DNA of 64,000 bases from Alphaproteobacteria bacterium (GCA_963555825.3 CAUVXB020000002.1:2560001-2624000); one strand, 5' to 3'. Counted from the first letter of the stretch, positions 5,331 through 40,575 are shown. A program made the numbers and translations. The notes: generated by a model not told the origin, from the letters alone.

Positions 5331-6926
5331 CTACCCGACGTAGGTGAGCGTCGTCATCATGCCGGCGGCCATGTGGTAGAGGTTGTGGCAGTGCATCACC
5401 CAGTCGCCGGGATTGGTCGCGTCGAAGACGACCGTCACATGGATGTGCGGCGGCACCAGGACGGTGTCGCGCATGGCGCCCGGAAACCGCTCGCCGTTGA
5501 TCGCGACGACCTGGAAGGGCACGCCGTGCATGTGCATCGGGTGCGCCATCATGGTGTGATTGCGGAACGCCAGTTCGACGCGCTCGCCGGCGCGTAGTTC
5601 GAGCGGCTTGTGGTCGCCATAGGCGGCGCCGTTGATGCCCCAGACGAAGCCCTGCATCGAGCCGGTCAAATCGACGACATGCCTGCGGTCCGCCGGCCTC
5701 GCTTCGAGCGGTTGGGCAGCGGCGAGGCGGCGTTCGAGGTCGAGACCCAGCGCGGGCGCCATGTGCTCGACCTGGTCGGCGAGGTGTTTGAGGCGCCCCG
5801 CCGGGGTCGCAAGCACGATCCCGGTACGCGCCGTGTCGCCTTCGCGGTGCGCCATGATCGGATAGGCCCCTTGCCCGGCAGGCAGCGTGAGCCGGAGGTC
5901 GAGCCGCTGCGCGATGGCGATCGGAAAGCGCTGGCCGGGGACCGGCTCGACGGGCAGGCCGTCGACCGCGATCAGGCTGCCCTCGAGGCCGCCGAGACCG
6001 AGCCAGAAGTTGGTGCTGGCGGCGGCGTTGATGATACGCAGGCGCAGGCGCCCGCCGGGCGCGACGCGCACCACGTCGGGATCGGCGAGCGTGCGGTCGT
6101 TGGCCAGATAGGCGTCGAATTCGACATCGTTGAGATCCATCTCCATGGCGCCCATGGGCATGGCCTCGTTATCGCCGGACATCATGTCCATGGCCGCCAT
6201 GTCGCCGGATTGGCCGGTCATCATGTCCATGGCCGCCATGTCGCCGGATTGGCCGGACATCATGTCCATGGCCGCCGTTTCGCCGGATTGGCCGGTCATC
6301 ATGTCCATGGCCGCCGTTTCGCCCGATTGGCCGGTCGTGGCGCCGGCCATTTCCATCTGTTCCGACATGCCGCCATGGCCGCCGCCGGCGCGTAGATCGG
6401 CGAGAATCTCGTCGGGGTCGCGGAACGTGAAGTCGTGCAGCATCACGACGATTTCCTGCTCGTCGAGGCCGGCCTCGGCCGGGTCGCGGATGATGAAGGG
6501 CGCCGCCATCATCCGCTGCTCCTGGAAGCCGACGTGCGAGTGCATCCAAAACGTGCCGGGGACGTCGAGCGGGAAGTCGTAATCATACGCGGCGCCAGGC
6601 GCGAGCGCCGGTTGCGAGACATCGGGAACGCCGTCCTGCCGATATGGCGGCGACAGGCCGTGCCAGTGCACCAGGGTCGGTTCGTCGAGGTGGTTTTCGA
6701 GCGTCGCGCGGTAGCGTTGCCCGGCCTCGGCGTAAACACCCCACACGCCGTCGGGCCGACCGATATGAAGCGTCGACGCCGCCTTGCCGTTGACCTCGAT
6801 CACGCGCGTCTCGGCGCGCAGGACGATCGGCGACTGCCCGGCCATCGCCGGCCACGTCAGGGCTGCCGGCATGAGCGCCGCCCCGGCGGCGGATCCGAGG
6901 AATTCGCGGCGCGTGAAACTGGTCAT
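5331..6926 (-). CDS. Tat-exported multicopper oxidase with Met-rich insert
   Basis: TRREFL twin-arginine signal; HWHG, WMHSH, HPMHMHG, HCHNLYHMAAGM copper motifs; start reassigned to ATG 6926. Confidence 0.93.
   Translation of the reverse strand: MTSFTRREFLGSAAGAALMPAALTWPAMAGQSPIVLRAETRVIEVNGKAASTLHIGRPDGVWGVYAEAGQRYRATLENHLDEPTLVHWHGLSPPYRQDGVPDVSQPALAPGAAYDYDFPLDVPGTFWMHSHVGFQEQRMMAAPFIIRDPAEAGLDEQEIVVMLHDFTFRDPDEILADLRAGGGHGGMSEQMEMAGATTGQSGETAAMDMMTGQSGETAAMDMMSGQSGDMAAMDMMTGQSGDMAAMDMMSGDNEAMPMGAMEMDLNDVEFDAYLANDRTLADPDVVRVAPGGRLRLRIINAAASTNFWLGLGGLEGSLIAVDGLPVEPVPGQRFPIAIAQRLDLRLTLPAGQGAYPIMAHREGDTARTGIVLATPAGRLKHLADQVEHMAPALGLDLERRLAAAQPLEARPADRRHVVDLTGSMQGFVWGINGAAYGDHKPLELRAGERVELAFRNHTMMAHPMHMHGVPFQVVAINGERFPGAMRDTVLVPPHIHVTVVFDATNPGDWVMHCHNLYHMAAGMMTTLTYVG
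6180..6336. repeat. 39-bp tandem repeat x4 encoding (T/S)GQSG(ET/DM)AAMDMM inside the multicopper oxidase
   Basis: Unit catcatgtccatggccgcc(at/gt)..cgccggattggccgg(t/a) repeated four times. Confidence 0.9.
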
Positions 6927-7060
6927 ATTCAATCTCCAAAACCGCGGCTGCGCAGATGGCTTCCCGCAATCGCTTGCGACAGTATCACGAGAACCGCCCC
7001 AAATCGAAAGCCGCGCCCTTTGGGATGTAGTGACTCCGAATTCGGCCTTGAACGGGCGAA

Positions 7061-7666
7061 CTAGACCGCGTCGATGCGCTCGATGGCGCCGCCGTGCAGG
7101 CGGTAGAAGGCGTTCTGGGGCTGGTCGAGGGCGAGCGTCTCGGCGGGGCTGAGGCCCAGATAGTGGCCGCGGAAGACGCGGCCGACCGCGCCGTGCGCGA
7201 CGGCGATGAGCGGTCCGCCGCCCGGCGCCAGGGCGTCGAGCCAGTCGCCGACGCGCGCCGCCAGCATGGCATAGCTCTCGCCGCCGCCCGGCGGCACGTA
7301 GTTCCAGTGGTGGTGGGTGTCCTGGCGGCGGTGCGCCAGCGCGCCGGGGTCGCGCGCCTCGATCTCGTCGAGGGTCAGGCCGTCCCAGGCGCCCCAGGTC
7401 TGCTCCTGCAAGCGGTCGTCGATCGGGATGTCTTCGGGCGCCAATCCCAGTTCGGCGCGGATCAGCGCCGCGGTCCGCCGCGTGCGGCCGAGGGGACTCG
7501 CCACCATCTTGACGTCGCCGTCGACGAGTCGGGCGAGCGCGCGGCCCATGGCGCGCGCCTGGTCCTCGCCGCGTGGCGTGAGCCGCGAATCGAGATGGCC
7601 CTGCATGCGCCGCTCGCGGTTCCACTCGGTCTCGCCGTGGCGGACCAGATAGATCACGCGGTCCAT
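7061..7666 (-). CDS. Histidine phosphatase (phosphoglycerate mutase-like) family, paralog 2
   Basis: RHGETEWN, SPLGRTRRTA, GGESY, VAHG motifs. Confidence 0.92.
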   Translation of the reverse strand: MDRVIYLVRHGETEWNRERRMQGHLDSRLTPRGEDQARAMGRALARLVDGDVKMVASPLGRTRRTAALIRAELGLAPEDIPIDDRLQEQTWGAWDGLTLDEIEARDPGALAHRRQDTHHHWNYVPPGGGESYAMLAARVGDWLDALAPGGGPLIAVAHGAVGRVFRGHYLGLSPAETLALDQPQNAFYRLHGGAIERIDAV

Positions 7667-7713
7667 GGCATTCGCTGAGGATCGTCGGTATTCATTGGGG
7701 TCGACGCTTTACT

Positions 7714-8322
7714 TCATCGCCCGGCCGCGTCGATGCGCTCGATGGCGCCGCCGTGTAGGCGAAAGAATGCGTCCTGCGGCTCGTCGACGGTGAGCGTCTC
7801 GGCCTCGGAGAGCCCCGCGTAGCGCCCACGCAGCACGCGCCCCACCGGGCCATGGGTGATGGCGACGATGCGCCGGCCGGGCGCGAGGTCGTCGAGCCAG
7901 CCGCCGACGCGCGCGGCCAACGCGGCGTGGCTTTCGCCGCCCGGCGGCTCGTGGGTCCAGTGCTGCCGGGCGTCCCGGCGGCGGCGCGCCAGCTCGCCCG
8001 GGTCGCGCGCCTCGATCTCGTCGAGCGTCAGCCCGTCCCAGGCGCCCCAAGTCATCTCGTTGAGCCGGTCGTCGGCCGTGTGTTCGGCCGCGAAACCCAT
8101 CGCGTGACCGATGATCTCCGCGCTTCGCCTGGCGCGGCCCAACGGGCTGGCCACCATGTCGAAGCCGTCGCCGTCGCCGATCAGCCCGGCGAGCGCCGTG
8201 CCGACCCGCCGAGCCTGGTCCTCGCCGCGCGCGGTGAGCGGCGAATCGAGTTGGCCCTGGATGCGGCGGTCGCGGTTCCACTCGGTCTCGCCGTGACGGA
8301 CGAGGTAGATCAGGCGGTCCAT
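7714..8322 (-). CDS. Histidine phosphatase family, paralog 1
   Basis: RHGETEWN, SPLGRARRSA, GGES, ITHG motifs; highly similar to the adjacent gene. Confidence 0.92.
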   Translation of the reverse strand: MDRLIYLVRHGETEWNRDRRIQGQLDSPLTARGEDQARRVGTALAGLIGDGDGFDMVASPLGRARRSAEIIGHAMGFAAEHTADDRLNEMTWGAWDGLTLDEIEARDPGELARRRRDARQHWTHEPPGGESHAALAARVGGWLDDLAPGRRIVAITHGPVGRVLRGRYAGLSEAETLTVDEPQDAFFRLHGGAIERIDAAGR

Positions 8323-25752: not shown

Positions 25753-28700
25753 GTGATGGGCCGCTGCCTGCGCGCGCTTGCGCTGCTGTCGGTGCTGGTC
25801 TCGACATTCGTGACCGGTGCATCGGGCCAACAGTCGGATGCCGATCTTCGGGGCCTCGGCGAGATGTTCGGCTGGGCGAGCGGCTGCCGTTGCCTCGAGT
25901 ACAATATCGCGACGCTCGAAAAGCACATGGCATCGCTGTTCCCGCAGTATTCCGAGCAGCAAATCAAGACGATCCTCCAATGGGCGCATTGGGGCCGCAA
26001 GGAATCCGACCTCGTCGATACCAGCTCCCAGGGCTGCTTTCAGGCCTGCGAGGCGGCCGGGCGCGCACAGTTCTTCGACCGGGTGAACGCGGCGATCGCC
26101 GGCTTCGCCGACAGCGGACGCGATGTGCTCGCGCGCGCCAACAGCCTGTTCGACGAGGCGCGCTATGCCGAGGCCGAACCGCTATACAAGAGCTATCTGG
26201 CCGAGCATGTGAGGCGCGGCGACGCCGATACCGGCTTGGTCGCGCTGGCATTCAACAATCTGGCGCTGCTCTACTCGACGCAGGGCCGCTATGACGAGGC
26301 CGAGCCGCTGTTCGAGCGTGGCTTGGCGATCAGGCGCAAGCTCTTCGGCGCGGCGCATCCCGAGGTCGCGCAGTCGCTCGCCGGCTTGGCGTCGCTCTAC
26401 GACGGACAAGGCCGCTACGGCGAGGCCGAGCCGTTCTATCGCGAAGCCTTGTCGATCCGTGAAGCGTCGCTTGGCGCCGAGCACCCCGACGTCGCCGCCA
26501 GCCTGGGTCAGCTCGCCGGCCTCTTGGTGAGCCAGGGCCGCTACGGCGCCGCGGACGCTCTCTATCGGCGCGCCCTCGGCATTCAGGAGCGAAACCTAGG
26601 GACGGATCATCCGGATGTCGCCGGCACCTTGAACAGCATCGCCGGACTACGCGTCAGCCAAGGCCTCTACGACGATGCCGAGGCCCTGCATCTGCGCGCC
26701 CTGCGCATCAGGGAAACCGCCTTCGGCGTCGATCATCCGGTCATCGGGCAAAGCGTCTCGAACCTCGCGCTGCTGTACGACATCCAGGGGCGTTACGGCG
26801 CGGCCGAGCCGCTGCACCGCCCCGCGCTGGCGATCTGGGAGACCGCCTTCGGCATCGACCACCCCAACGTCGCCGCCATGATGAACAATCTCGCGGTCGC
26901 CTTCGCCATCCAGGGCCGCTACGCCGAGGCGGCGCCGCTCTATGAGCGCGCGCTCGCCATTCGCGAGGTGGCGCTCGGCGCCGATCACCCCGATGTCGCC
27001 GGTGGCTTGAACAACCTCGCCTGGGTCTACGCGCGCGAGGGACGCTATGACGATGCAGTCGCGTTGCACCGCCGCGCGCTGGCCATCCGCGAGGCGGCGC
27101 TCGGGTCCGCCCATCCCGACGTCGCGGGCAGCCTGAAAAACCTGGCGAGCCTCTACGTCCGGCAACGCAGCGACGTCGACGTCGAGCCGATGCTGCGCCG
27201 CGCGCTGGCGATCCGCCAGGCGGCGTTCGGCGCCGACCACCCGCTGGTCGCCGAGAGTCTCAGTCAGCTTGCCGGGTATCTCGCGACCGACGGCGACCGG
27301 GCCGAAGCGGAACGGCTGTTCGGGCAGGCGATCGCGGCCAGCGAGAAGGCGTTGGGCGCCGACCATCCGACCGTGGCGACGCAGCTCGACGGCCTCGCCG
27401 GGCTCTATCAGGCGCAAGGCCGGATAGCCGAAGCGCTGGGGCTCGCGCGCCGCGCCACCGCGGTCTTCCGCGACCGCGCCGCGCGCGCCAGCGGCGATCT
27501 CTCCTCCGGCCAACTGCGCGAGCAGGCGAGTGTGCGGCACATCTTCCTGCGCCACGTCGACCTCGCCACGGCGGGCGCCGCGCCCACGGCCACGGCGCTG
27601 AACGAGGGGTTCGAGGCCGGTCAGCTCGCCCAGGCGACCGATGCGGCGCAAGCCGTGGCGCGCATGGGCGCCCGCTTCGCGGCCGGCGACGACGGCTTGG
27701 CGAAGGCGGTGCGCGCGCGCCAGGACGCCGTCGAGTGCTGGCGCAGGTTGGACACACAGTTGATCGAGGCGGTGAGTTCTTCGCCCGAGGCCCGTGACCG
27801 CGCCGTCGAGGAACGCCTGCGCGCCGAAACCGCTCGGCTCGAAGCGCGCATCGCCGAACTCGACAAACGGCTGGCACGCGAATTCCCCGAATTCGCCGAG
27901 CTCGCCAGCTCGAAACCACTGACGGTATCGGACGTCCAACGATTGCTCGCACCGACCGAGGCGTTGATGACCTACCTGGTCGGCGAACGGTTCAGCTATC
28001 TCTGGGTCATGCGGGGCGACCGCGTGGCGTTCCATCGCATCGACGTCGCTCGCCAGGAGATCGAGGACGCCGTGACCGTGCTTCGGTCCGGCCTGGACCA
28101 ATCGGGCATCAGGACCGTCGGCGACATCAGGCCGTTCGACGTCGAAGAGGCGTTCCTGCTCTATGCGCAAATCTTCGCCCCGGCCGAGGCCGCCCTCGAC
28201 GGCGCCAGCCACGTGTTCGTGGTACCCGATTCCGCGCTTCGCGCCTTGCCTCTCGGCGTTCTCGTCACGGCCGAGCCGAAGCGCCGCATACGGAAGCTTT
28301 CCGCCTACCGCGACGTGCCGTGGCTCGCAAAGTCGTACGCCTTCACGACGCTGCCCTCGGTGTCGTCGCTGCGCGCACTCCGGCTGTTCGCCAAGGCGAC
28401 CCGCGCGACGCGGCCCTTCGCCGGCTTCGGCGATCCGCTGCTCGACGGCGACCCGGGCGGCGGTCGCGGCGTCGACGTGGCGATCCTGTTCCAGCGCGGC
28501 GCCGTCGCCGACGTTGAATCGGTGCGCCAGTTGCCGCGTCTGCCCGAGACCGCCGACGAGCTGAACGCGATCGCACGCAGCATGGGCGCCGACACCGACG
28601 CGGTATATCTGCGGGAGCGCGCGACCGAGGCGCTGGCGCGGTCGGAAGACCTGTCGCGCTTCCGCATCCTCGCCTTCGCCACCCACGGCCTGATCGCCGG

Positions 28701-29148
28701 CGATATCAAGGGCGTCGCCGAGCCCGCCCTGGTGATGACGCCGCCCGAGGTCGGCAGCGAGCAGAACGACGGGCTGCTGACCGCGAGCGAGATCGCGACA
28801 CTCGATCTCGACGCCGACTGGGTGATTCTGTCGGCCTGCAACACCGCCGCCGCGGACGGCACGCCCGGCGGCGAGGGCTTGTCGGGGCTCGCCAAGGCGT
28901 TCTTCTTCGCCGGCGCGCGGGCGCTCTTGGTGTCGCACTGGTCGGTCGCTTCCGACGCGACGGTCAAGCTGACCACCGGCATGCTGGGCGCGCTCGCGAA
29001 GGACCCGGCGATCGGCCGCGCCGAATCGCTCAGGCGCGCGATGCTCGCCCTGATGGCCGACGAGGAGAAACTGTACTTCGCCCACCCGATGTTCTGGGCG
29101 CCCTTCGTCGTCGGCGGCGGCGAGGGCGCCGCCGCCGCCGCCGGCTAG
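25753..29148 (+). CDS. TPR-repeat CHAT-domain (caspase-like) protein with N-terminal signal-like sequence
   Basis: About 10 HPDVA..LNNLA.LY..QGRY TPR repeats; CHAT motifs VPDSAL, FATHG, LSACNTA, LVSHWSV, HPMFWAPF. Confidence 0.92.
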   Translation: MMGRCLRALALLSVLVSTFVTGASGQQSDADLRGLGEMFGWASGCRCLEYNIATLEKHMASLFPQYSEQQIKTILQWAHWGRKESDLVDTSSQGCFQACEAAGRAQFFDRVNAAIAGFADSGRDVLARANSLFDEARYAEAEPLYKSYLAEHVRRGDADTGLVALAFNNLALLYSTQGRYDEAEPLFERGLAIRRKLFGAAHPEVAQSLAGLASLYDGQGRYGEAEPFYREALSIREASLGAEHPDVAASLGQLAGLLVSQGRYGAADALYRRALGIQERNLGTDHPDVAGTLNSIAGLRVSQGLYDDAEALHLRALRIRETAFGVDHPVIGQSVSNLALLYDIQGRYGAAEPLHRPALAIWETAFGIDHPNVAAMMNNLAVAFAIQGRYAEAAPLYERALAIREVALGADHPDVAGGLNNLAWVYAREGRYDDAVALHRRALAIREAALGSAHPDVAGSLKNLASLYVRQRSDVDVEPMLRRALAIRQAAFGADHPLVAESLSQLAGYLATDGDRAEAERLFGQAIAASEKALGADHPTVATQLDGLAGLYQAQGRIAEALGLARRATAVFRDRAARASGDLSSGQLREQASVRHIFLRHVDLATAGAAPTATALNEGFEAGQLAQATDAAQAVARMGARFAAGDDGLAKAVRARQDAVECWRRLDTQLIEAVSSSPEARDRAVEERLRAETARLEARIAELDKRLAREFPEFAELASSKPLTVSDVQRLLAPTEALMTYLVGERFSYLWVMRGDRVAFHRIDVARQEIEDAVTVLRSGLDQSGIRTVGDIRPFDVEEAFLLYAQIFAPAEAALDGASHVFVVPDSALRALPLGVLVTAEPKRRIRKLSAYRDVPWLAKSYAFTTLPSVSSLRALRLFAKATRATRPFAGFGDPLLDGDPGGGRGVDVAILFQRGAVADVESVRQLPRLPETADELNAIARSMGADTDAVYLRERATEALARSEDLSRFRILAFATHGLIAGDIKGVAEPALVMTPPEVGSEQNDGLLTASEIATLDLDADWVILSACNTAAADGTPGGEGLSGLAKAFFFAGARALLVSHWSVASDATVKLTTGMLGALAKDPAIGRAESLRRAMLALMADEEKLYFAHPMFWAPFVVGGGEGAAAAAG

Positions 29149-32268: not shown

Positions 32269-33446
32269 TGTCCTGATCGATAAATTGATATGATTATGTC
32301 TCTATTTGTTTTTAGGAGGCGCGATTGATGGCGAGAGTGGCGGTGACGATCTCTTTGAGCGATGACGAGCGCGCCGAATTGGAGGCGCTGTCTCGTCGTC
32401 GCAAGACGTCGCAGGGGCTTGCGCGGCGGGCTCGGATCGTCTTGGCGGCGGCGGAAGGGTTGGAGAACAAGGAGATCGCCGTTCGTCTCGAGGCGAGCGC
32501 GGACACCGTGGGCAAGTGGCGTCGCCGCTATGCGGCGGAGGGCCTCGACGGTCTGTACGACGAACCCCGCCCCGGCGCGCCGCGTCAAATCGGCGATGAC
32601 GCCATCGCGGAAGCGGTCCGGCTGACGCTGGAAGAGACGCCGCCGGACGCGACCCATTGGAGCCTTCGCTCGATGGCGCGGGCGAGCGGCCACGCGCCCT
32701 CGACCATTCATCGCATCTGGCGGGCCTTCGGCTTGCAGCCGCATCGCTCGGAGACCTTCAAGCTGTCGAGCGATCCCTTCTTCGTGGAGAAGGTCCGCGA
32801 CATCGTCGGTCTGTATTTGGCGCCGCCGGATCGTGCCCTGGTTCTCTGTGTCGACGAAAAGAGCCAGATCCAGGCCCTGGACCGTTCCCAGCCCCTCTTG
32901 CCGATGCGCCCCGGGCAGGCGGAGCGGCGCAGCCACGACTACAAGCGCCACGGCACGACCTCTCTCTTCGCGGCCCTCGACATCGCCACGGGAGAGATCA
33001 TCGGCAAATGTTTCCCGCGCCATCGGGCCCGAGAGTTCCGCAAATTCCTCGACCTCGTCGAGGCGAACGTCCCTGCTGATCTCGACATCCACATCGTCAT
33101 GGACAACTACGGGACCCACAAGACCAAGGCGATCCGCGACTGGTTCGCCAAACGGCCGCGCTGGCAGGCCCATTTCACACCCACCAGCGCCTCCTGGCTG
33201 AACCAGGTCGAGCGCTGGTTCGGGCTGCTGACCGACAAGCAGATCAGGCGCGGCGTCCATCGCTCCACCAAGGAGTTGGAGCGCACCATCCTCGACTACA
33301 TCGACACGACAAACCAGAACCCCAAACCCTTCAAATGGACCAAATCCGCCGATGACATCCTCGGCGCCATCCAGCGCTTCTGCCTCCGAACAATCGAAAT
33401 CGCTGAACAGCAGGCGAAAATCATGCGAACTTCGGAATCGGGACAC
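32268..33446 (+). mobile_element. IS630-family insertion sequence, copy 2 (inverted relative to copy 1)
   Basis: Same ends and TA/CTAG flanks; identical protein. Confidence 0.93.
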
Positions 33447-33449
33447 TAG
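32325..33449 (+). CDS. IS630 family transposase
   Basis: Translation identical to 22649-23773. Confidence 0.95.
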
Positions 33450-34999
33450 TCCTCGCCCGGGCCGTCGCGCTCCGGGGCGTCGCGCCAGGGCAGCCGGGCG
33501 CGCCGCTCGGTGCCGTAGAGCGTGCCGAGGTTGCGGATGTAGTCGCGCGCCGGATCGCGCGCCGGGCGGTAGTCCCAGAGGCTGCGCTCACCCGTCATCA
33601 GCGCCTCGTGCACCAGGCGCCGGCGGCGCTGGCTGGCGATGATGTCTTCGGTCAGCGCCGGGGCGTCCCATTGGCGCGCGACCTCGGCCGCCAACTCGCG
33701 CTCGATCCCGGCGTGCGCGGCATCGCCGGCCAGGTTGTGAAGCTCGTCGGGGTCGGCGGCCAGGTCGTAAAGCTGCGGCGGATCGGCCGGCGAGGCGACG
33801 TATTTGTGCGGCCCGCGCAGGACCATGAAGATCGGCGCCAGCGCGACCTCGGCGGTGTATTCGCCGTACACCGTGTCGTTCCAGCCGGCCGCGTCGCCAT
33901 CGAGCAGCGGGACCAGGCTGTGGCCGTCGACCGGCGCGGCGCGCTCGGGTACCGCGCCGCCGGCGAGATCGAGGAATGTCGGGAACAGATCGACCAGCGA
34001 GACGTTGCGCACCACGCGGCGCGCCGCGCGGCCCGGCGCGGCGACGATCAGCGGCACGCGCGCGGATGGCTCGAAGAAGCTCATCTTGTACCAAAGTCCG
34101 CGCTCGCCGAGCGTGTCGCCGTGGTCCGAGGTGAGCACCACGACGGTGTCGTCGGCCAGGCCGCAGGCGTCGAGCGCCGCCGTCAGCTCGCCGATCTTGT
34201 CGTCGACGTAGGAGATCATGCCGTAATAGGCGTGGCGCGCATTGCGCACGTGGTCGTCGGTCACGCGGTAGCGCCCGCGGTCGTAGTTCTCGTAAAGCCG
34301 CCGGCTGTGCGGGTCGCGCTCGGACACCGGAATGGGGCCGACGCGCGGCGCATCGATCGCGTCGTGGTCATAGCGGTCCCAGTGTTCCCGGGTCGTCGTA
34401 TAGGGGTCGTGCGGGTGGCTGAACGAGACCATCAGGAAGAACGGCCGGTCGTCGTCCTCTCTCGCGAGGTCGTAGATTTTGCGCGTCGCGGCGAAGGCGA
34501 CCTCGTCGTCGTAGTCGATCTGCAGGCTGCGCTCGCAAGGGCCGGCCTCGACCACGTTGAGTATGTCGTGGAACCATTCGAGCCGCCCGTCTGGCGCCTG
34601 CCAGTCGGGCGTCCAGCCGAAGTCGGCCGGGTAGATGTCGGTGGTCAGCCGTTGCTCGAAGCCGTGCAGCTGGTCGGGGCCGACGAAATGCATCTTGCCG
34701 GCGCAGGCCGTGCGATAGCCGGCGAGCCGCAGGTAATGCGCGAAGGATGGGATCTCGGCCGGGTATTCGGCGGCGTTATCGTACGCGCCGATGCGCGTCG
34801 CGAGCCGACCGGTCAAGAGCGAGAAGCGCGACGGCGCGCAGATCGGAAAGTTGCAATAGGCCGCGTCGAACACCGCGCCGCGCGCCGCCAGCGCGTCGAT
34901 ATGGGGCGCCGCGACCAGCGGGTGGCCATAGGCCGGCAGCGCTTTCGCCGCCATCTGATCGGCCATGACGAACAGGAAATTGGGCCGCTTGCCGGGCAT
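33446..34999 (-). CDS. betC: Choline-sulfatase
   Basis: [15 protein letters not shown] formylglycine motif, [53 protein letters not shown]. Confidence 0.9.
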
Positions 35000-35143
35000 C
35001 GCGTATCCTCGTGGTTTTGCGCGTACATAGCACGACGCGGCGCGGGCGCAAGCGGCGAATCCGCGCGTGGCGATCGGCGCCGGCGCGCCGCGGCGGCCCG
35101 GCCCGGCGGGACACTGGCGGGTCCCGGGGCAATGCCCCGGCGG

Positions 35144-35872
35144 TTATTCCCGAGCGCCGGCTTGCTCGAGAAGCCGGATGATCTCCCGGTAACCGCCGAC
35201 GTCCAGTTGGGTCGAGGCGAGGGATTCATGTATGAACGCCGCCCTCATCAGCGCGGTCGAGCCGAAGTCGCTCTCGGCGTTCACGTCGGCGCCGGCGGCC
35301 AGCAGCGCCTCGACGGTCTTGGCGTGTCCACCGAACGCGGCGAGGATAAGCGCGGTCTCGCCGATGTCGGTTCGCGCATCGACGTCGACGCCCTGGCCGA
35401 GCAGGGTTCGCACGCCAGCCGCGTCGCCGATCCTCGCCGCATCGAGCAGCATGGCCGCCGTTCCGCCGGTCAAGCGGGACGCGAAGTCGTCGTTCGTCGC
35501 CCCGCGGTTGCGCTGATAGAACTGTTTGGCCGCCGCGATTTCGCTCGCCGGCAATCCGGATACGTCGATGTCGCCGACAGAGTGCAGTTCGCATTCGTAT
35601 TTCACGTCGTACGAGGCCGCCTTGTCGTCGCAGGCCTTGGTCGCCCTGCGGACTGCCTCATCGACGGTCCGGCCGGCAAACGCGTAGCCCAACGCCTTGT
35701 CGTGTTTGCCCGTTGTCCGCGAAATGGTGAACGCGCGATAATGCGGGCGGCTCTTGTAGTCCTGATAGCTGTAATAGGCCCATGACGGCACCGCCCCGGC
35801 GTTGCCGTCGGCGACGGCAACCAACGCCAGTGAAATGACGCATAGCGACCCCAAGAGCCGCCGCCCGTTCAT
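35144..35872 (-). CDS. Secreted protein with a Cys-containing N-terminal domain and C-terminal ankyrin repeats
   Basis: Signal peptide; GETALILAAFGGH..TVEALLAAGADVNA, GSTALMRAA; N-terminal GYAF..TVDEAVRRATKAC...C resembles DUF4189-like domains. Confidence 0.82.
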   Translation of the reverse strand: MNGRRLLGSLCVISLALVAVADGNAGAVPSWAYYSYQDYKSRPHYRAFTISRTTGKHDKALGYAFAGRTVDEAVRRATKACDDKAASYDVKYECELHSVGDIDVSGLPASEIAAAKQFYQRNRGATNDDFASRLTGGTAAMLLDAARIGDAAGVRTLLGQGVDVDARTDIGETALILAAFGGHAKTVEALLAAGADVNAESDFGSTALMRAAFIHESLASTQLDVGGYREIIRLLEQAGARE

Positions 35873-36009
35873 GGCCAGCCCCCGTCGTGACGCGATGACC
35901 GGCAGTCTACGCCCATCGCTCCTCGATGGATACGCTGGCGAAATACCCAGATGACTGCCAATACGATGAAGGCGAAGACAATGGGTCCTACGATCGTCGG
36001 GTCCATCAT
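35869..36009 (-). CDS. 46-aa single-pass membrane peptide absent from the ORF track
   Basis: Manual translation MMDPTIVGPIVFAFIVLAVIWVFRQRIHRGAMGVDCRSSRHDGGWP; starts 12 nt after the NB-ARC stop; its TGA overlaps the ankyrin gene ATG (ATGA). Confidence 0.55.
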   Translation of the reverse strand: MMDPTIVGPIVFAFIVLAVIWVFRQRIHRGAMGVDCRSSRHDGGWP

Positions 36010-36021
36010 CCCGTCCCGTTC

Positions 36022-38811
36022 CTAATCGTCGCTCTTGAGCCGCGCCAAGCCGGCGCGCACCTCGTCGACATGGGGCGACTCGTTTTCCTCGAAGATTATC
36101 AAGGCCTCCTGGAGCCGTGTGATGGCTTGGCCACGTTCGCCAGCCTTAGCCAGTTCACAGCCGAGGTTGTACAGGCCAGTACCTTCGCAGCGCCAGTTGC
36201 CGATCTCGCGGGCGATTTCAATTTGTTGCTCATAGAACTCGATGGCGCGGCGGGTCTCGCCGAGGGCCGCATAGGCCAAGCCCAGATTGCCCAGGTACTG
36301 TCCCTCGCCCAACCGGTCGCCGATCTCGCGGGCGATCACCAAATCCTGCTCGTAGAACTCGATGGCGCGGCGGGTCTCGCCGAGGGCCGCATAGGCCACG
36401 CCCAGACTGCCCAGCGCGGCGCCTTCGCCGCGCCGGTCGCCGATCTCGCGGGTAATCTCCAATTGTTGCTCGTGGAACTCGGTGGCGCGGTGGTGCTCGC
36501 CGAGGACCGCGTAGGCCAAGCCCAGATTGCCCAGCGCGTTGCCTTCGCCGCGCCGGTCGCCGATCTCGCGGGCGATCTCCAAATTCTGTTCATAGAACTC
36601 GATGGCGCGGCGGGTCTCGCCGAGGTCCGCATAGGCAGCGCCCAAATGGCCGATCGCGCTGCCTTCGCCGCGCCGGTCGCCGAGCTCGCGGGCGATTTCC
36701 AGCTGTTGCTCGAAGAACTCGATGGCGCGGCGGAACTCGCCGAGGGCCGCATAGGCAGTGCCCAGACAGCCCAGCGCGTTGCCTTCGCTGCGCCGGTCGC
36801 CGATCTCGCGGGTGATCTCCAAATGTTGTTCATGGAACTCGATGGCACGGCGGGTCTCGCCGAGGGTCTGATAGGCCAAGCCCAGATTGCCCAGCGTGGC
36901 GCCTTCGCCACGCCGGTCGCCGATGTCACGAGAGACCTTCAAAGCCTGCTCATGGATCTCGATGGCGCGGCGGGTCTCGCCGAGGTCCCAATAGGCAATG
37001 CCCAGATTGCCGAGCGAGTCGCCTTCACTGAGCCGGTCGCCAAGGTCACGAAAGATATCCAAAGCCTGCTCGTGGAATTCGATGGCGCGGCGGGTTTCGC
37101 TGAGGGCCGCATAGGCCAAGCCCAGATTGCCCAGCGAGACGCCTTCCATACCGCGATCCTGCAACCGCCGCGCCGCCCCAACCGATGCCTTCAACCAGCC
37201 GATACGCGCCTGCGCATGCAGACGCAGGTTCAGCACATAGATCCCCGCGTTCGGGTAACGGCCACAAGCGCGCGCCGCCGTACCATCGTCCGGGGCGGTG
37301 CGGGCCGCCCAGGCCTGGCCCGCCTCGATGTTGCGCCACTCAAGGTCGAACAGCGCCAGACCCTCGGTGATCCCGTCGTCCCCTCGCAGGTAAATCTCTT
37401 GCGCGGACCCTAGCACTGCCAGATAGTGCTCCGCATGGCGCGCCGCCGCCTGCTGCTCAATCGGCGCAAGCGCGGCCAGTTCCGCCTCCGCGAGGTCGGC
37501 GCCGCGCGCCACGTCGCGCATCAGGTCGTGCAGCCGGTACCGCGCGGAGTCCTCGTCGAACAGCACCATGCTGCGCCCGACCAGCGCACTCAGCCCGTCG
37601 CGCGCTTCGTCGGTCGGAACATCCCACACCGCCGCCACCGCGGCGCGCTCGAAGTCTCCGACAAACACCCCCAGCATCCGCCATCGCGCCGCCAGATCCG
37701 ACCGATCGCGCGCCAGCTGCGCTACGCTCAGACCCAAGGATGCCAACACATCGAGCGCCACATCCCCCTCGATCCGCAGCCGCCTTAGCCGCTCGCGCTC
37801 GTCGGACAATGCCGCCAGATACTCGGCCACCGACCAGTCACGGTGCAGATTGAGAAACGCCCCCGCGACCCGCAGTGCAAGCGGCAACCGGCCGCAGGCA
37901 ACCGGAAGCCCGGCCAGCTCCGCGTCGCTCACCCTGTCCGGGCCCAGGATGGCGCCCAGCAGCCCCTGCGCCTCGCTCCCGCTCAACGTATCCAGGTTGA
38001 ACGAGCGAACCCCGTCGAGCGCGATCCCCCGGCGCGAGGTCATGATCGCCGCGCAGGGCGGCGGCGGCATCAGCGGGCGCACCTGGTCCCCGTCCGAAGC
38101 ATTGTCCAGGATGATCAGCGCGCGTTTGTCGGACAGCAGGCCGCGATAGAGCGCCGCCACCGCGTCCGGCTCGTCGGGCAGCCGGGCGCCGGGCTCGAAG
38201 CCGTGGATCACCCGCTCCATCGCCGCCGCCGGCTCGAGCGGCGCATCCGAGGTGCCGGCCATGTCGACCACCAGCTGGCCGTCGGGATAACGGTCGGCCA
38301 GGCGGTGCGCGACATGGACCGCCAGCGCCGACTTGCCGATCCCGCCCATGCCGCCGATCGCGCTGATCGACGCGGCCGCGCCATCGCCCGACAGCAGCGC
38401 CTCCAGCTCGGCCACTTCCCGCTCGCGACCGGCAAAGTCGGCGAGGTCCGCCGGCAACTGCCGGCGCGATGAAATGACCTTTTCTGCGTCGGGGGCCTCA
38501 AAAATCTGGACGGTATCCGCAACAACGGTCCGATCTCCGGTTATGACCTTCGACCCGGCGATGTCGCCGCCCGCCGCGACGCCGCGATCGCCCGTCTGCT
38601 CGATTTTGGGGGTTTCCGGGGTTTGATCGGGCGGCGCTTTGTCCGCCTTCGCCTCCAGGCCAATGTCCCTCGGTCGCTCGGCGCCGTTCTTGGCTCTCCT
38701 GCCGGAGAAATGCTTGTACGCCACCCAAGCGCCACCGATGCCTGCCAAAGCGACTGGAACGACAACGCTGAGTGGGTCGACATTTTCAGTTATCCAATGC
38801 CACAAGTCCAT
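36022..38811 (-). CDS. NLR-like STAND NTPase: N-terminal TM helix, NB-ARC domain, TPR repeats
   Basis: QLPADLADFAGRE, GMGGIGKS (Walker A), LIILDNA (Walker B), TSR, CGRLPLAL, YRLHDLMR; C-terminal 40-aa TPR repeats. Confidence 0.92.
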   Translation of the reverse strand: MDLWHWITENVDPLSVVVPVALAGIGGAWVAYKHFSGRRAKNGAERPRDIGLEAKADKAPPDQTPETPKIEQTGDRGVAAGGDIAGSKVITGDRTVVADTVQIFEAPDAEKVISSRRQLPADLADFAGREREVAELEALLSGDGAAASISAIGGMGGIGKSALAVHVAHRLADRYPDGQLVVDMAGTSDAPLEPAAAMERVIHGFEPGARLPDEPDAVAALYRGLLSDKRALIILDNASDGDQVRPLMPPPPCAAIMTSRRGIALDGVRSFNLDTLSGSEAQGLLGAILGPDRVSDAELAGLPVACGRLPLALRVAGAFLNLHRDWSVAEYLAALSDERERLRRLRIEGDVALDVLASLGLSVAQLARDRSDLAARWRMLGVFVGDFERAAVAAVWDVPTDEARDGLSALVGRSMVLFDEDSARYRLHDLMRDVARGADLAEAELAALAPIEQQAAARHAEHYLAVLGSAQEIYLRGDDGITEGLALFDLEWRNIEAGQAWAARTAPDDGTAARACGRYPNAGIYVLNLRLHAQARIGWLKASVGAARRLQDRGMEGVSLGNLGLAYAALSETRRAIEFHEQALDIFRDLGDRLSEGDSLGNLGIAYWDLGETRRAIEIHEQALKVSRDIGDRRGEGATLGNLGLAYQTLGETRRAIEFHEQHLEITREIGDRRSEGNALGCLGTAYAALGEFRRAIEFFEQQLEIARELGDRRGEGSAIGHLGAAYADLGETRRAIEFYEQNLEIAREIGDRRGEGNALGNLGLAYAVLGEHHRATEFHEQQLEITREIGDRRGEGAALGSLGVAYAALGETRRAIEFYEQDLVIAREIGDRLGEGQYLGNLGLAYAALGETRRAIEFYEQQIEIAREIGNWRCEGTGLYNLGCELAKAGERGQAITRLQEALIIFEENESPHVDEVRAGLARLKSDD
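36190..37140. repeat. About 8 highly similar 120-bp tandem repeats encoding TPR units
   Basis: gatggcgcggcgggtctcgccgagg-like unit recurs at 36241, 36361, 36481, 36601, 36721, 36841, 36961 and 37081. Confidence 0.92.
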
Positions 38812-39036
38812 CCGCGCCTATCTCTCCTAGCCGGGGAACGATCGACTCCGAGCCTACTACCGTTACGGGAGACGCTCAATTTGATCTGCACCCCGCTGTA
38901 AAGAAAATGACCATCTCGCGGCAAAACAGAGTCGCTTTCGGAGCCGGCCTTCGCCGGGGATGACGCCGCCGCCGGGACGGCGTAAGCTGCGCTCTACCGG
39001 CGCGTTCGCGCGCCGCAACGCAACGAGAAGGGGTCG

Positions 39037-40575
39037 GTGGTCATGGTTGCGCTCGTCGAATTTCCACGCGAGATGGAGCAGCGGGTCCGCTTCATCGAGG
39101 ACACCACGCCCGACCACATCTGCGAGGCGACGCTCGAGAAACTGCGCAAGGGCGACCGGCCCGAGCAGCTGCTCGCCGCGGCCGGGCTCGCGGTCAGCCG
39201 CTCGTCCGAGCTGCCGACGCACCACCACGGCGGCCCGGTGCACCCGGTCGCCGGGCTGCACGCCTCGATGGCGCTGGTCAACCGGCTCGACGGCGAATGG
39301 CGCTACCTGCCGGTCATCCAGTCGGTCGCGCTCGCCAACAAGCACATCCGCTCGCCCGACATGGGGCCGGCGGCGATGACCGAGGTCGAGCCGGTGGCCG
39401 GCGGCGGCCGCGACAAGGAGGCGCTCCTGGCGGCCTTCGTCGAGGCGCTCAGGAACCGCAAGGCGCGCACCGCCGAATGCCACCTCCTGACGCTGCTGCA
39501 CATCGCAACGCCGGGGCGCATCGTCGAGGCGATGATGCAGATCGCGCTGCCGCGCAACATGCTCGACGACCACTTCTTCCTCTATCCGATCTACGCGCTG
39601 CGCGCGCTCGACGACCTCGGCTGGCAATGGGCGTCGGTCCTGCTGCGCCCGCCGGTGCGCTATCTGGCGAGCCATCCGATGCTCGAGCCGATCGACGGCT
39701 TCGGCGCGGCAACGATCGAAGAGGGCGTCAGGCTCTACCAGGATTTCGACGCCATCGAGCGGCTGATCGACGCGCGCGAGCTCGACGCGCAGCACGTCCG
39801 CATCCACTCGGGCGAGGACGAGACGGCGGCGATCGGCGCCCTGGCCGAGCGCATCGGCGACGTCGACGACATCCGCGACGTCACCGGCATGCTGGCCGAC
39901 GCGCTGGCCGCCAAGCTGTCGCTCGAAGGCGTCGGCGAGGCGCTGTCGATCGGCGGCGGCTACCTGTTCCTGCGCTCGCACTCGGGCAACCCGTTCGACG
40001 TCCACATCCATACCGGCATCAACGCGCGCCGCTACCTCCTGACACTCGACGGCGTCAGCCTGCGCACCAAGCTCTTGGCGCTGTTCACCTGGTGCTACGG
40101 GACCGAGGTCCGCGCGCTCTCGTCCACCCTGACCTGGCCGGTGCGCGCGGCGGCCGATACGCTGGCCCATCCGCCGGGCGATTCGCAGCAGGCGCTGCTC
40201 GATGCGCTGATCAACAACATCGCCGCCCAGCCGGTCGTCGACCTCGAGACGATCACGGTGCCGATCGAAAAACTGGTTGCGCCCGACGAGGTCCACCAGG
40301 CGGCGGCGCTAGCCGAACGTTATGCCGCGCTCGGCCACGACGCCGAGCCGTTCTTCAAGCTGCTCGGCGAGCTGGTCTGCCGCGATGACGCCTCGGAGAT
40401 GCACGCCTACAAGATGCAGCAGGCGGCGATCGAGGAGTACCAGACGACGCGCGAGCCGTACCGCTGGGTCCATCTGGTGTCGGCCGCCAAGCACGCCGCC
40501 TGCATCACCGAGATGCGCCCAAAGACGGTCTATCCGCGCATCCGCCCGCTGCTCATGGACCGAGATGCGCCGTGA
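39037..40575 (+). CDS. Hypothetical His-rich, mainly alpha-helical protein
   Basis: 512-aa ORF with host-like codon usage; stop overlaps the next start (GTGA); motifs HHHGGPVHP, DDHFF, DVHIHTG, EMHAYK. Confidence 0.75.
   Translation: MVMVALVEFPREMEQRVRFIEDTTPDHICEATLEKLRKGDRPEQLLAAAGLAVSRSSELPTHHHGGPVHPVAGLHASMALVNRLDGEWRYLPVIQSVALANKHIRSPDMGPAAMTEVEPVAGGGRDKEALLAAFVEALRNRKARTAECHLLTLLHIATPGRIVEAMMQIALPRNMLDDHFFLYPIYALRALDDLGWQWASVLLRPPVRYLASHPMLEPIDGFGAATIEEGVRLYQDFDAIERLIDARELDAQHVRIHSGEDETAAIGALAERIGDVDDIRDVTGMLADALAAKLSLEGVGEALSIGGGYLFLRSHSGNPFDVHIHTGINARRYLLTLDGVSLRTKLLALFTWCYGTEVRALSSTLTWPVRAAADTLAHPPGDSQQALLDALINNIAAQPVVDLETITVPIEKLVAPDEVHQAAALAERYAALGHDAEPFFKLLGELVCRDDASEMHAYKMQQAAIEEYQTTREPYRWVHLVSAAKHAACITEMRPKTVYPRIRPLLMDRDAP

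Follow-up and report, generated by a model that had tools for sequence, protein, structure and literature searches.

An NLR-like gene with a putative membrane helix, an apparent NLR gene relic and an ankyrin-repeat neighbour in an alphaproteobacterial genome

Introduction

Whether three tightly packed genes on one strand make up a single membrane-acting immune system, or lie next to each other for other reasons, is the question raised by a locus in a 64,000-nucleotide stretch of DNA from an Alphaproteobacteria bacterium (GCA_963555825.3, CAUVXB020000002.1:2560001-2624000; the whole stretch is referred to below as the window, with positions counted from its first letter). On the minus strand of the window, a gene encoding an NLR-like STAND protein of 929 aa (36022..38811) is followed by a small open reading frame (sORF) of 46 codons (35869..36009) and by a gene encoding a predicted secreted DUF4189-like and ankyrin-repeat protein of 242 aa (35144..35872). 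The original prediction took the three products for one immune or signalling system acting at the membrane, in which a transmembrane (TM) peptide partners the helix of the NLR and the periplasmic ankyrin protein is the outside component. The layout on which it was based is borne out by direct reading: the genes are co-oriented, the NLR stop and the sORF start are separated by 12 nt (36010..36021, minus strand), and the sORF and the ankyrin gene share an ATGA stop/start overlap (35869-35872, minus strand). The analysis described here indicates that the locus probably consists of an ordinary membrane-type bacterial NLR, a gene relic and an unrelated ankyrin neighbour; a block of foreign-looking DNA holds all three.

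Origin of the small open reading frame

The start of the sORF had been thought to echo the N-terminal helix of its own NLR. This likeness does not hold, since the local alignment of the two scores 23, a value reached by 673 of 2000 composition-preserving shuffles. The N-termini of three NLR homologues, P0027, P0009 and P0008, give scores of 50, 46 and 44, respectively, which none of 2000 shuffles reaches, while other membrane-type N-termini score 24-30 against the sORF.

Comparison at the DNA level by blastn revealed that window positions 36082-35929 match positions 5856-6009 of locus L010 in the related genome G007 at 82.5% identity over 154 nt (E=4.7e-39), and that the matched stretch comprises the last 20 codons of the NLR, its stop codon, the spacer and the first 27 codons of the sORF. 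In G007, where the NLR is 75-88% identical to that of the window, the same start codon opens a full-length NLR gene (L010:5929-6975, continued past a frameshift in 6644-8230), and a third copy of the junction follows the stop codon of that NLR and decays within about ten codons. Each of the three NLR 3' ends inspected, two of them in G007 and the third in the window, carries the junction of stop, spacer and ATGATGGACCCG, the 12-nt spacer forming part of this conserved NLR-to-NLR junction. Codons 1-27 of the sORF (35929..36009, minus strand) correspond to the relic of an N-terminal membrane module here called type B. The similarity to G007 ends at codon 27 (about position 35929), and the remaining 19-codon tail (codons 28-46 and the stop, 35869..35928, minus strand), which runs into the ankyrin start and is common to P0121 and to L061, a metagenome contig from a near relative, is therefore not NLR-derived.

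A scan of 1.84 billion representative proteins (E<=0.001) gave ten matches, namely P0121 (45 aa, 78% identical to the sORF and with the same tail), seven short ORFs and two unrelated repetitive proteins. The seven ORFs, of 59-94 aa, begin with the module and break off after about 32 to 72 residues into unrelated tails. The G007 junction match and these recurrent fragments identify the sORF as the remnant 5' end of a tandem NLR paralogue that has been lost, with 27 codons of the paralogue joined to 19 unrelated codons. A search for the junction DNA in 400 other sampled genomes of the class (G007 not among them) returned only GC-rich matches of 25-40 nt, in 15 genomes, and a non-exhaustive full-text search of the literature met no description of relic NLR 5' modules as sORFs.

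A number of observations weigh against decay. Plausible ribosome-binding sites were read before all three ORFs, and just as the NLR has a Shine-Dalgarno-like (SD-like) AGGAGA 9 nt before its ATG, the sORF has an SD-like AGGA 10 nt before its first ATG; its start is tightly coupled to the genes on both sides, and the frame is open in two other lineages (P0121 and L061), where both its tail and its overlap with the ankyrin start are preserved. Over the 38 codons compared with L061, 8 changes are synonymous and 11 non-synonymous, which corresponds to a ratio of non-synonymous to synonymous substitution rates (dN/dS) of 0.41, with a synonymous excess at P=0.08. These features, with an ORF open in three lineages, a well conserved 19-codon tail and short ORFs that start with the module in 8 of the 10 library matches, would suit a relic that had been co-opted, so that the free 46-aa module would be produced and would act on NLRs anchored in the membrane, either as a co-effector or as a decoy keeping their helices apart, the ankyrin gene again being unrelated. 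A possible promoter could be added to them, a sigma-70-like match (consensus match only, at 9 of 12 positions) inside the 3' part of the NLR gene, some 85 nt ahead of the sORF (36095..36123, minus strand); the region contains two such sites, compared with 0.7 +/- 0.7 in shuffled sequences.

Co-option is nevertheless judged decidedly unlikely. The break points and tails of the short ORFs all differ from one another, as decay predicts and design does not, and the sORF region has changed about 2.7 times faster than the neighbouring gene (19 differences from L061 in 113 nt, against 50 in 723 nt of the ankyrin gene; Fisher P=0.0013). The GC content at third codon positions (GC3) of the sORF, 0.66, is far from the coding norm of the genome, its module is of type B while the resident NLR is of type A, and the downstream remnant in G007 has no hydrophobic stretch. 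The sORF fits a slowly decaying relic better than a gene under weak constraint, as far as these comparisons go. By analogy with truncated plant NLRs, decapitated membrane modules might persist as translated microproteins that tune membrane-anchored NLRs, and such microproteins might keep the helices separate before activation or enter the bundle once activation has occurred; we regard this as highly doubtful. If the relic were translated and active it would raise the prospect of truncated-NLR regulators in bacteria, of which it would be the first example. For the search for sORFs in general, the case is a caution that a tightly coupled, conserved-looking ORF with a membrane helix beside a defence gene can be a gene fragment.

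Neighbouring genes and the ankyrin-repeat protein

If the NLR, the peptide and the ankyrin protein worked together, the same neighbours would be expected beside homologous NLRs, and this was not found; neighbours that vary from one homologue to another are an outcome which the original prediction itself had named as counting against it. Among the related genomes, G007 is the only one with readable flanks of a close NLR homologue, and there an MmgE/PrpD-like ORF lies upstream and an ABC ATPase-like ORF downstream (both named from sequence), with no ankyrin gene. In G003, the homologue (L003 1387-3632) is spread over three frames and has transposase-like ORFs, also named from sequence, on both sides. 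Inspection of 19 more distant NLR loci gave no recurrent downstream ORF, and the order sORF-ankyrin-sulfatase is kept only in L061. The closest genomic homologues of the NLR are both broken, that of G007 (L010 5929-8230) by one frameshift and that of G003 by fragmentation, and the NLR genes of this family seem to turn over fast.

Regarding the ankyrin protein itself, the secreted character that had been proposed for it is supported by a signal-peptide-like start, with hydrophobic residues 6-20 (mean hydropathy 2.68) and a confidence score (pLDDT) below 50 for residues 1-26 of the AF2 model, from which export is predicted; the repeats are confirmed by Pfam (Ank_2, 1.3e-11; Ank, 2e-11). The model as a whole (pLDDT 74.9) has an N-terminal domain of beta-beta-alpha-beta-beta order, and two cysteines are invariant in an alignment of six sequences of the protein and its relatives. 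DUF4189 (PF13827) gave no match in the window protein at E<=5; a homologue in genome G005, 29-35% identical, matches the family at E=1.6e-4 with 22.7 bits, below the cut-off of 25. Fold matches of the model in the PDB were DARPins or ankyrin proteins only and gave no assignment for the N-domain. The protein is read as a predicted Sec-type secreted, DUF4189-like protein whose relatives are encoded apart from NLRs. Within the 13 genomes of the family, full-length relatives were located at three other sites, two of them in G000 and the third in G005 (G000:C2:2062666-2063316, L054; G005:C34:23069-23719, L055; G000:C1:974064-974720, L053); they are 35-37% identical over the full length and none adjoins an NLR. 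Two of the three are divergent from nearly identical regulators of the winged-helix Trans_reg_C family, one of which has TPRs, and regulator and ankyrin paralogue may form a regulator-target pair. A ToxR-like reading of these regulators was rejected, their only hydrophobic window (1.62) lying in a soluble-looking conserved motif.

The runs labelled sponge metagenome hold DNA of this locus, and the protein fits the class of eukaryotic-like proteins of a sponge-associated bacterium; ankyrin-type members of this class in sponge symbionts can alter phagocytosis by sponges, according to PMC13747020. Closer orthologues are P0122 (93% identical), the L061 gene (89%) and P0124 (67%, or 70% in the six-sequence alignment). 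The gene in L061 (L061:122-838) has an in-frame TAG at codon 117 and a dN/dS of 0.44 against the window gene, pointing to relaxed constraint or to an error in the contig. In a single study, two RNA libraries yielded contigs that span 35242-35870 of the ankyrin gene with at most one mismatch, which gives weak support to its transcription, DNA carry-over in RNA libraries being possible; no near-identical RNA-library contig was found on the NLR or the sORF in four runs, whose low depth means that this is not evidence of silence. In a metagenome protein of 375 aa (P0186), HATPase_c and FHA domains are joined to a C-terminal segment which covers 22% of the query and has 87% identity to the C-terminus of the ankyrin protein; it lies on a contig of 1487 nt and is probably a chimeric assembly.

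The three-component reading draws on the packing of the genes, with its 12-nt gap and ATGA overlap, and on several further points, all of which weigh against an unrelated neighbour. The NLR and the ankyrin gene share a foreign-looking GC3 of 0.82, compared with 0.91-0.93 in the flanking sulfatase, 512-aa and Rieske genes, and the adjacency of sORF and ankyrin gene is kept in L061 and is implied for P0121 by its identical C-terminus. The orthologue contigs, of 756-3398 nt, are too short to read whether NLR and ankyrin gene are linked elsewhere. In run X18, moreover, a metagenome contig joins position 35011 to 38952 and thereby skips 3940 nt, the whole NLR-sORF-ankyrin block. Together with the shared GC3, this join hints that the block is gained or lost as a unit and may be missing from a relative; it is taken only as a hint because its shorter side is 38 nt, the likeness is 80% and the sequence between is unknown.

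Against the same reading stand the derivation of the sORF from an NLR 5' end, its chance-level likeness to the resident helix, the NLR of G007 with its different neighbours, the ankyrin paralogues away from NLRs and the in-frame stop in L061. A PADLOC search found only generic TPR and ankyrin matches (the 'TPR' model and C3a156, both on the repeats) and no specific model, and thus no matching system. On a positive-inside reading, the part exposed to the periplasm would amount to about 13 residues in the NLR and about 5 in the peptide, and therefore almost no surface would be offered to a partner in the periplasm. We consider a system of NLR, peptide and ankyrin protein to be very unlikely. With the sORF a relic and the ankyrin gene seemingly unrelated to the NLR, the three-part appearance is therefore most likely an accident of gene decay, and both the sORF and the ankyrin gene may be dispensable for the NLR.

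The NLR protein and its N-terminal slot

The first gene is, by its motifs and relatives, an intact AfsR-like NB-ARC/TPR STAND NTPase, that is, a bacterial NLR. Pfam matches in its product comprise TPR families down to E=2.5e-54, AAA_16 (3e-5) and NB-ARC (1.5e-4), with no TIR, SIR2, nuclease, peptidase or DNA-binding domain among the families found in its 929 aa, so that the STAND NTPase had been rightly described as having no enzymatic effector domain. The NOD core extends from the Walker A to the MHD-like motif (37525..38352, minus strand), with Walker A (GMGGIGKS) at residue 154, Walker B (LIILDN) at 232, a GLPL-like GRLPLA at 307 and an MHD-like LHD at 427, names that come from the plant NLR literature. 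The second acidic residue of Walker B is Asn in the window protein and likewise in close homologues. Among PDB sequences, the AfsR NOD matches best (E=7.6e-56 over 369 residues), with Apaf-1 (7.8e-7) and the plant NLR Roq1 (4e-3) next.

The N-terminus had been described as a hydrophobic helix plus a short linker. The helix stands: residues 14-32 (38716..38772, minus strand) have a Kyte-Doolittle 19-residue mean of 1.82 and form the sole window of the protein at or above 1.6, with the corresponding helices of orthologues P0002 and P0003 scoring 2.06 and 2.25. Acidic residues precede it and K/H/R/R/K follow, a charge pattern suggestive of an N-out/C-in anchor and a cytoplasmic ATPase. The linker is not short: about 120 residues lie between the helix and the P-loop, and they contain a conserved Gly/Asp-rich beta motif at codons 73-104 (38500..38595, minus strand), which is common to the second half of EAD10-type N-termini. 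It was aligned by eye with P0004, P0010 and P0013, and a motif of the GxRxVA type was found in 35 of the 120 listed homologues.

Further downstream, the sensor array consists of 8.0 tandem copies of a 120-nt (40-aa) TPR unit that are 81% alike (36182..37146, minus strand; Tandem Repeats Finder), and the repeats match each other in blastn. Searched with the window NLR, the genome holds one copy of the gene, and homologues range in length from 740 to 929 aa. A second NB-ARC-type gene, not found by that search, lies elsewhere in the genome (G000:C1:54760-55386, L078; 762-aa frame, 28.1 bits, above the cut-off). In run X12, a near-identical strain has one G less at window position 36129 (one contig, with a depth of 44.5 of 44.5). 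The missing base, which is a true variant or else an error in the contig, would put about 35 codons at the end of the NLR gene out of frame.

A homologue search with NLR residues 1-520 as query, in which 8000 candidates were scored, yielded 1636 proteins at E<=0.001, and N-terminal classes were assigned to 120 listed homologues. The N-terminus is a long domain in 54, short and non-membrane in 43, membrane-like in 14 (several unrelated types of one to three helices) and truncated in 9; in 106 of the other 119 listed homologues the slot is not membrane-like. By Pfam, the long domains include PNP_UDP_1, Mrr_cat, DUF4062 and TIR_2, and the short class includes EAD10 (PF19954), in P0017 (25.0 bits, cut-off 24.1). 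N-termini can be unrelated even where the NOD is 79-87% identical to that of the window, being EAD10-like in P0004, another membrane helix in P0005 and the type B module in G007. Residues 1-130 of the window NLR gave no EAD10 match at E<=1. A pairing coupled through EAD10 was rejected because no EAD10-bearing partner was found in the whole genome, where the best match reached 13.2 bits (E=0.48), the level of control genomes. Swapped N-termini are the pattern of conflict systems, as set out by Kaur et al., and 'TM' and 'EAD' appear among the N-terminal classes in the figure legends of PMC13581612 and of a 2022 bNACHT preprint. Since the clade swaps conflict-type effectors in this slot, a membrane-acting immune or signalling role is reasonable for the NLR alone, which is the part of the originally proposed system that stands; its extension to three components does not.

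Some points weigh against the description as an ordinary membrane-type NLR. The NB-ARC match, at 21.6 bits, is just under the cut-off of 23.5, where homologues score 30-56 bits; a helix of 1.82 is only moderately hydrophobic; and, given the kinship with AfsR, the role could be regulatory instead of immune. The protein could be non-immune, either a membrane-tethered signalling STAND of the AfsR or MalT kind or a TPR-rich host-interaction protein of a sponge symbiont, with an output other than cell death. Its nearest solved relative is a regulator, it has no enzymatic effector and no EAD10 partner, and the eukaryotic-like proteins of sponge symbionts typically include TPR and ankyrin proteins (PMC13747020). 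Such a function is nonetheless considered unlikely: the protein has no DNA-binding domain; the TIR, Mrr, PNP and DUF4062 domains in the slots of sister proteins mark a conflict system under the reasoning of Kaur et al.; and the near-identical, fast-changing repeats, the frameshifted or fragmented copies in G007 and G003 and a nearby IS630-like gene fit a defence gene.

For the NLR as a defence protein, a mechanism is put forward tentatively, as possible rather than probable. The helix would tether the NLR to the inner membrane and leave the NOD and the TPR array on the cytoplasmic side, and a trigger might be bound by the fast-evolving 40-aa repeats. ATP-dependent oligomerisation of the NOD would then bundle the N-terminal helices, and the bundle could perturb the membrane and lead to abortive infection or growth arrest, so that the helix would be the effector, in the role taken by nucleases, TIR or PNP domains in sister proteins.

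Comparison with known systems

Swappable N-terminal effectors, among them membrane segments, have already been described for bacterial STAND/NLR proteins. The window protein resembles the Avs/bNACHT defence proteins in having an effector slot, a STAND NTPase and a C-terminal TPR-like sensor, with N-termini that are likewise swappable; it differs from them in that its NOD is of the NB-ARC/AfsR type and of no named Avs or NACHT clade, and in that the predicted effector is a single helix. In AfsR of Streptomyces, the N-terminal slot is filled by the DNA-binding SARP module. This large SARP regulator (PDB 8k60, 8jke) is the closest solved relative of NOD and arm and also has C-terminal TPRs, whereas in the window protein the slot holds a membrane helix and no DNA-binding domain was identified.

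EAD10 has a mixed alpha+beta character and recruits effectors, as described by Kaur et al. 2020, 2021. The EAD10 type is the commonest N-terminus of the clade (43 of 120 short and non-membrane, with EAD10 above the cut-off in P0017), and by alignment the window NLR keeps the beta-rich second half of the EAD10-type AP-ATPase/TPR proteins of those papers, but the helical first half is replaced by the membrane helix, with neither an EAD10 match nor a partner.

In the fungal HET-S/NWD2 and bacterial BASS amyloid pairs, a short N-terminal motif of the NLR recurs in a small adjacent gene, and the sORF bears a resemblance to this arrangement. It differs in that the shared piece is a membrane helix, N-terminal in both, and that it matches a paralogous NLR and not the resident one; the match also brings with it the stop and spacer of a preceding NLR, and therefore marks a duplication remnant, not a signalling motif. 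A BASS or amyloid pairing was rejected at the chance-level score of 23 given above, the match being to a paralogue 5' end.

The plant ZAR1-type resistosome has its helix in a soluble coiled-coil (CC) domain, from which it is exposed on activation. As an analogy of mechanism only, the window NLR would resemble it in that NB-ARC oligomerisation would gather N-terminal helices at the membrane, and would differ in that its helix would be inserted in the membrane from the start. The ankyrin protein resembles the ankyrin-type eukaryotic-like proteins of sponge symbionts in being secreted and repeat-bearing and in the sponge metagenome label of the runs that hold its DNA; it differs by its N-terminal DUF4189-like two-cysteine domain, and its relative in L061 has an in-frame stop. 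What the locus adds to these systems is a set of proteins, 79-87% identical in the NOD, that carry three unrelated membrane modules or an EAD10-like module, with junction relics flanking the genes. Birth-and-death evolution and the exchange of N-termini have thus left a clear mark on the tandem NLR arrays of sponge-associated bacteria.

Flanking genes

Directly past the ankyrin stop, a GC-rich hairpin with a 7-bp stem and a 3-nt loop was read (35124..35140, minus strand); the terminator scan did not call it because it has no T run, and the 44-nt intergenic stretch around it is identical in L061 at 41 of 44 positions. One gene away from the block, an IS630-like transposase-family gene (DDE_3, HTH_32; 32325-33449, plus strand) has a GC3 of 0.83, like that of the NLR block, and its end overlaps by 4 nt the end of a convergent choline-sulfatase-like gene (33446-34999).

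On the other side, a 512-aa protein with no Pfam match (39037-40575, plus strand) is encoded divergently from the NLR, and an RNA-library contig extends into this gene. Homologues at 53-58% identity are present in 3 of the 12 other genomes of the family, and a search for an empty site around them found no sulfatase within the loci fetched. A Rieske oxygenase gene follows the homologue in G010 and G005, whose loci alone extend far enough to reveal it. The window also encodes, some 7 kb from the NLR, a protein of 1131 aa (25753-29148, plus strand) with about ten TPR_12 repeats and a C-terminal caspase-like CHAT domain (E=8.3e-49); the variable region around the NLR thus includes a further gene of conflict or eukaryotic-like type.

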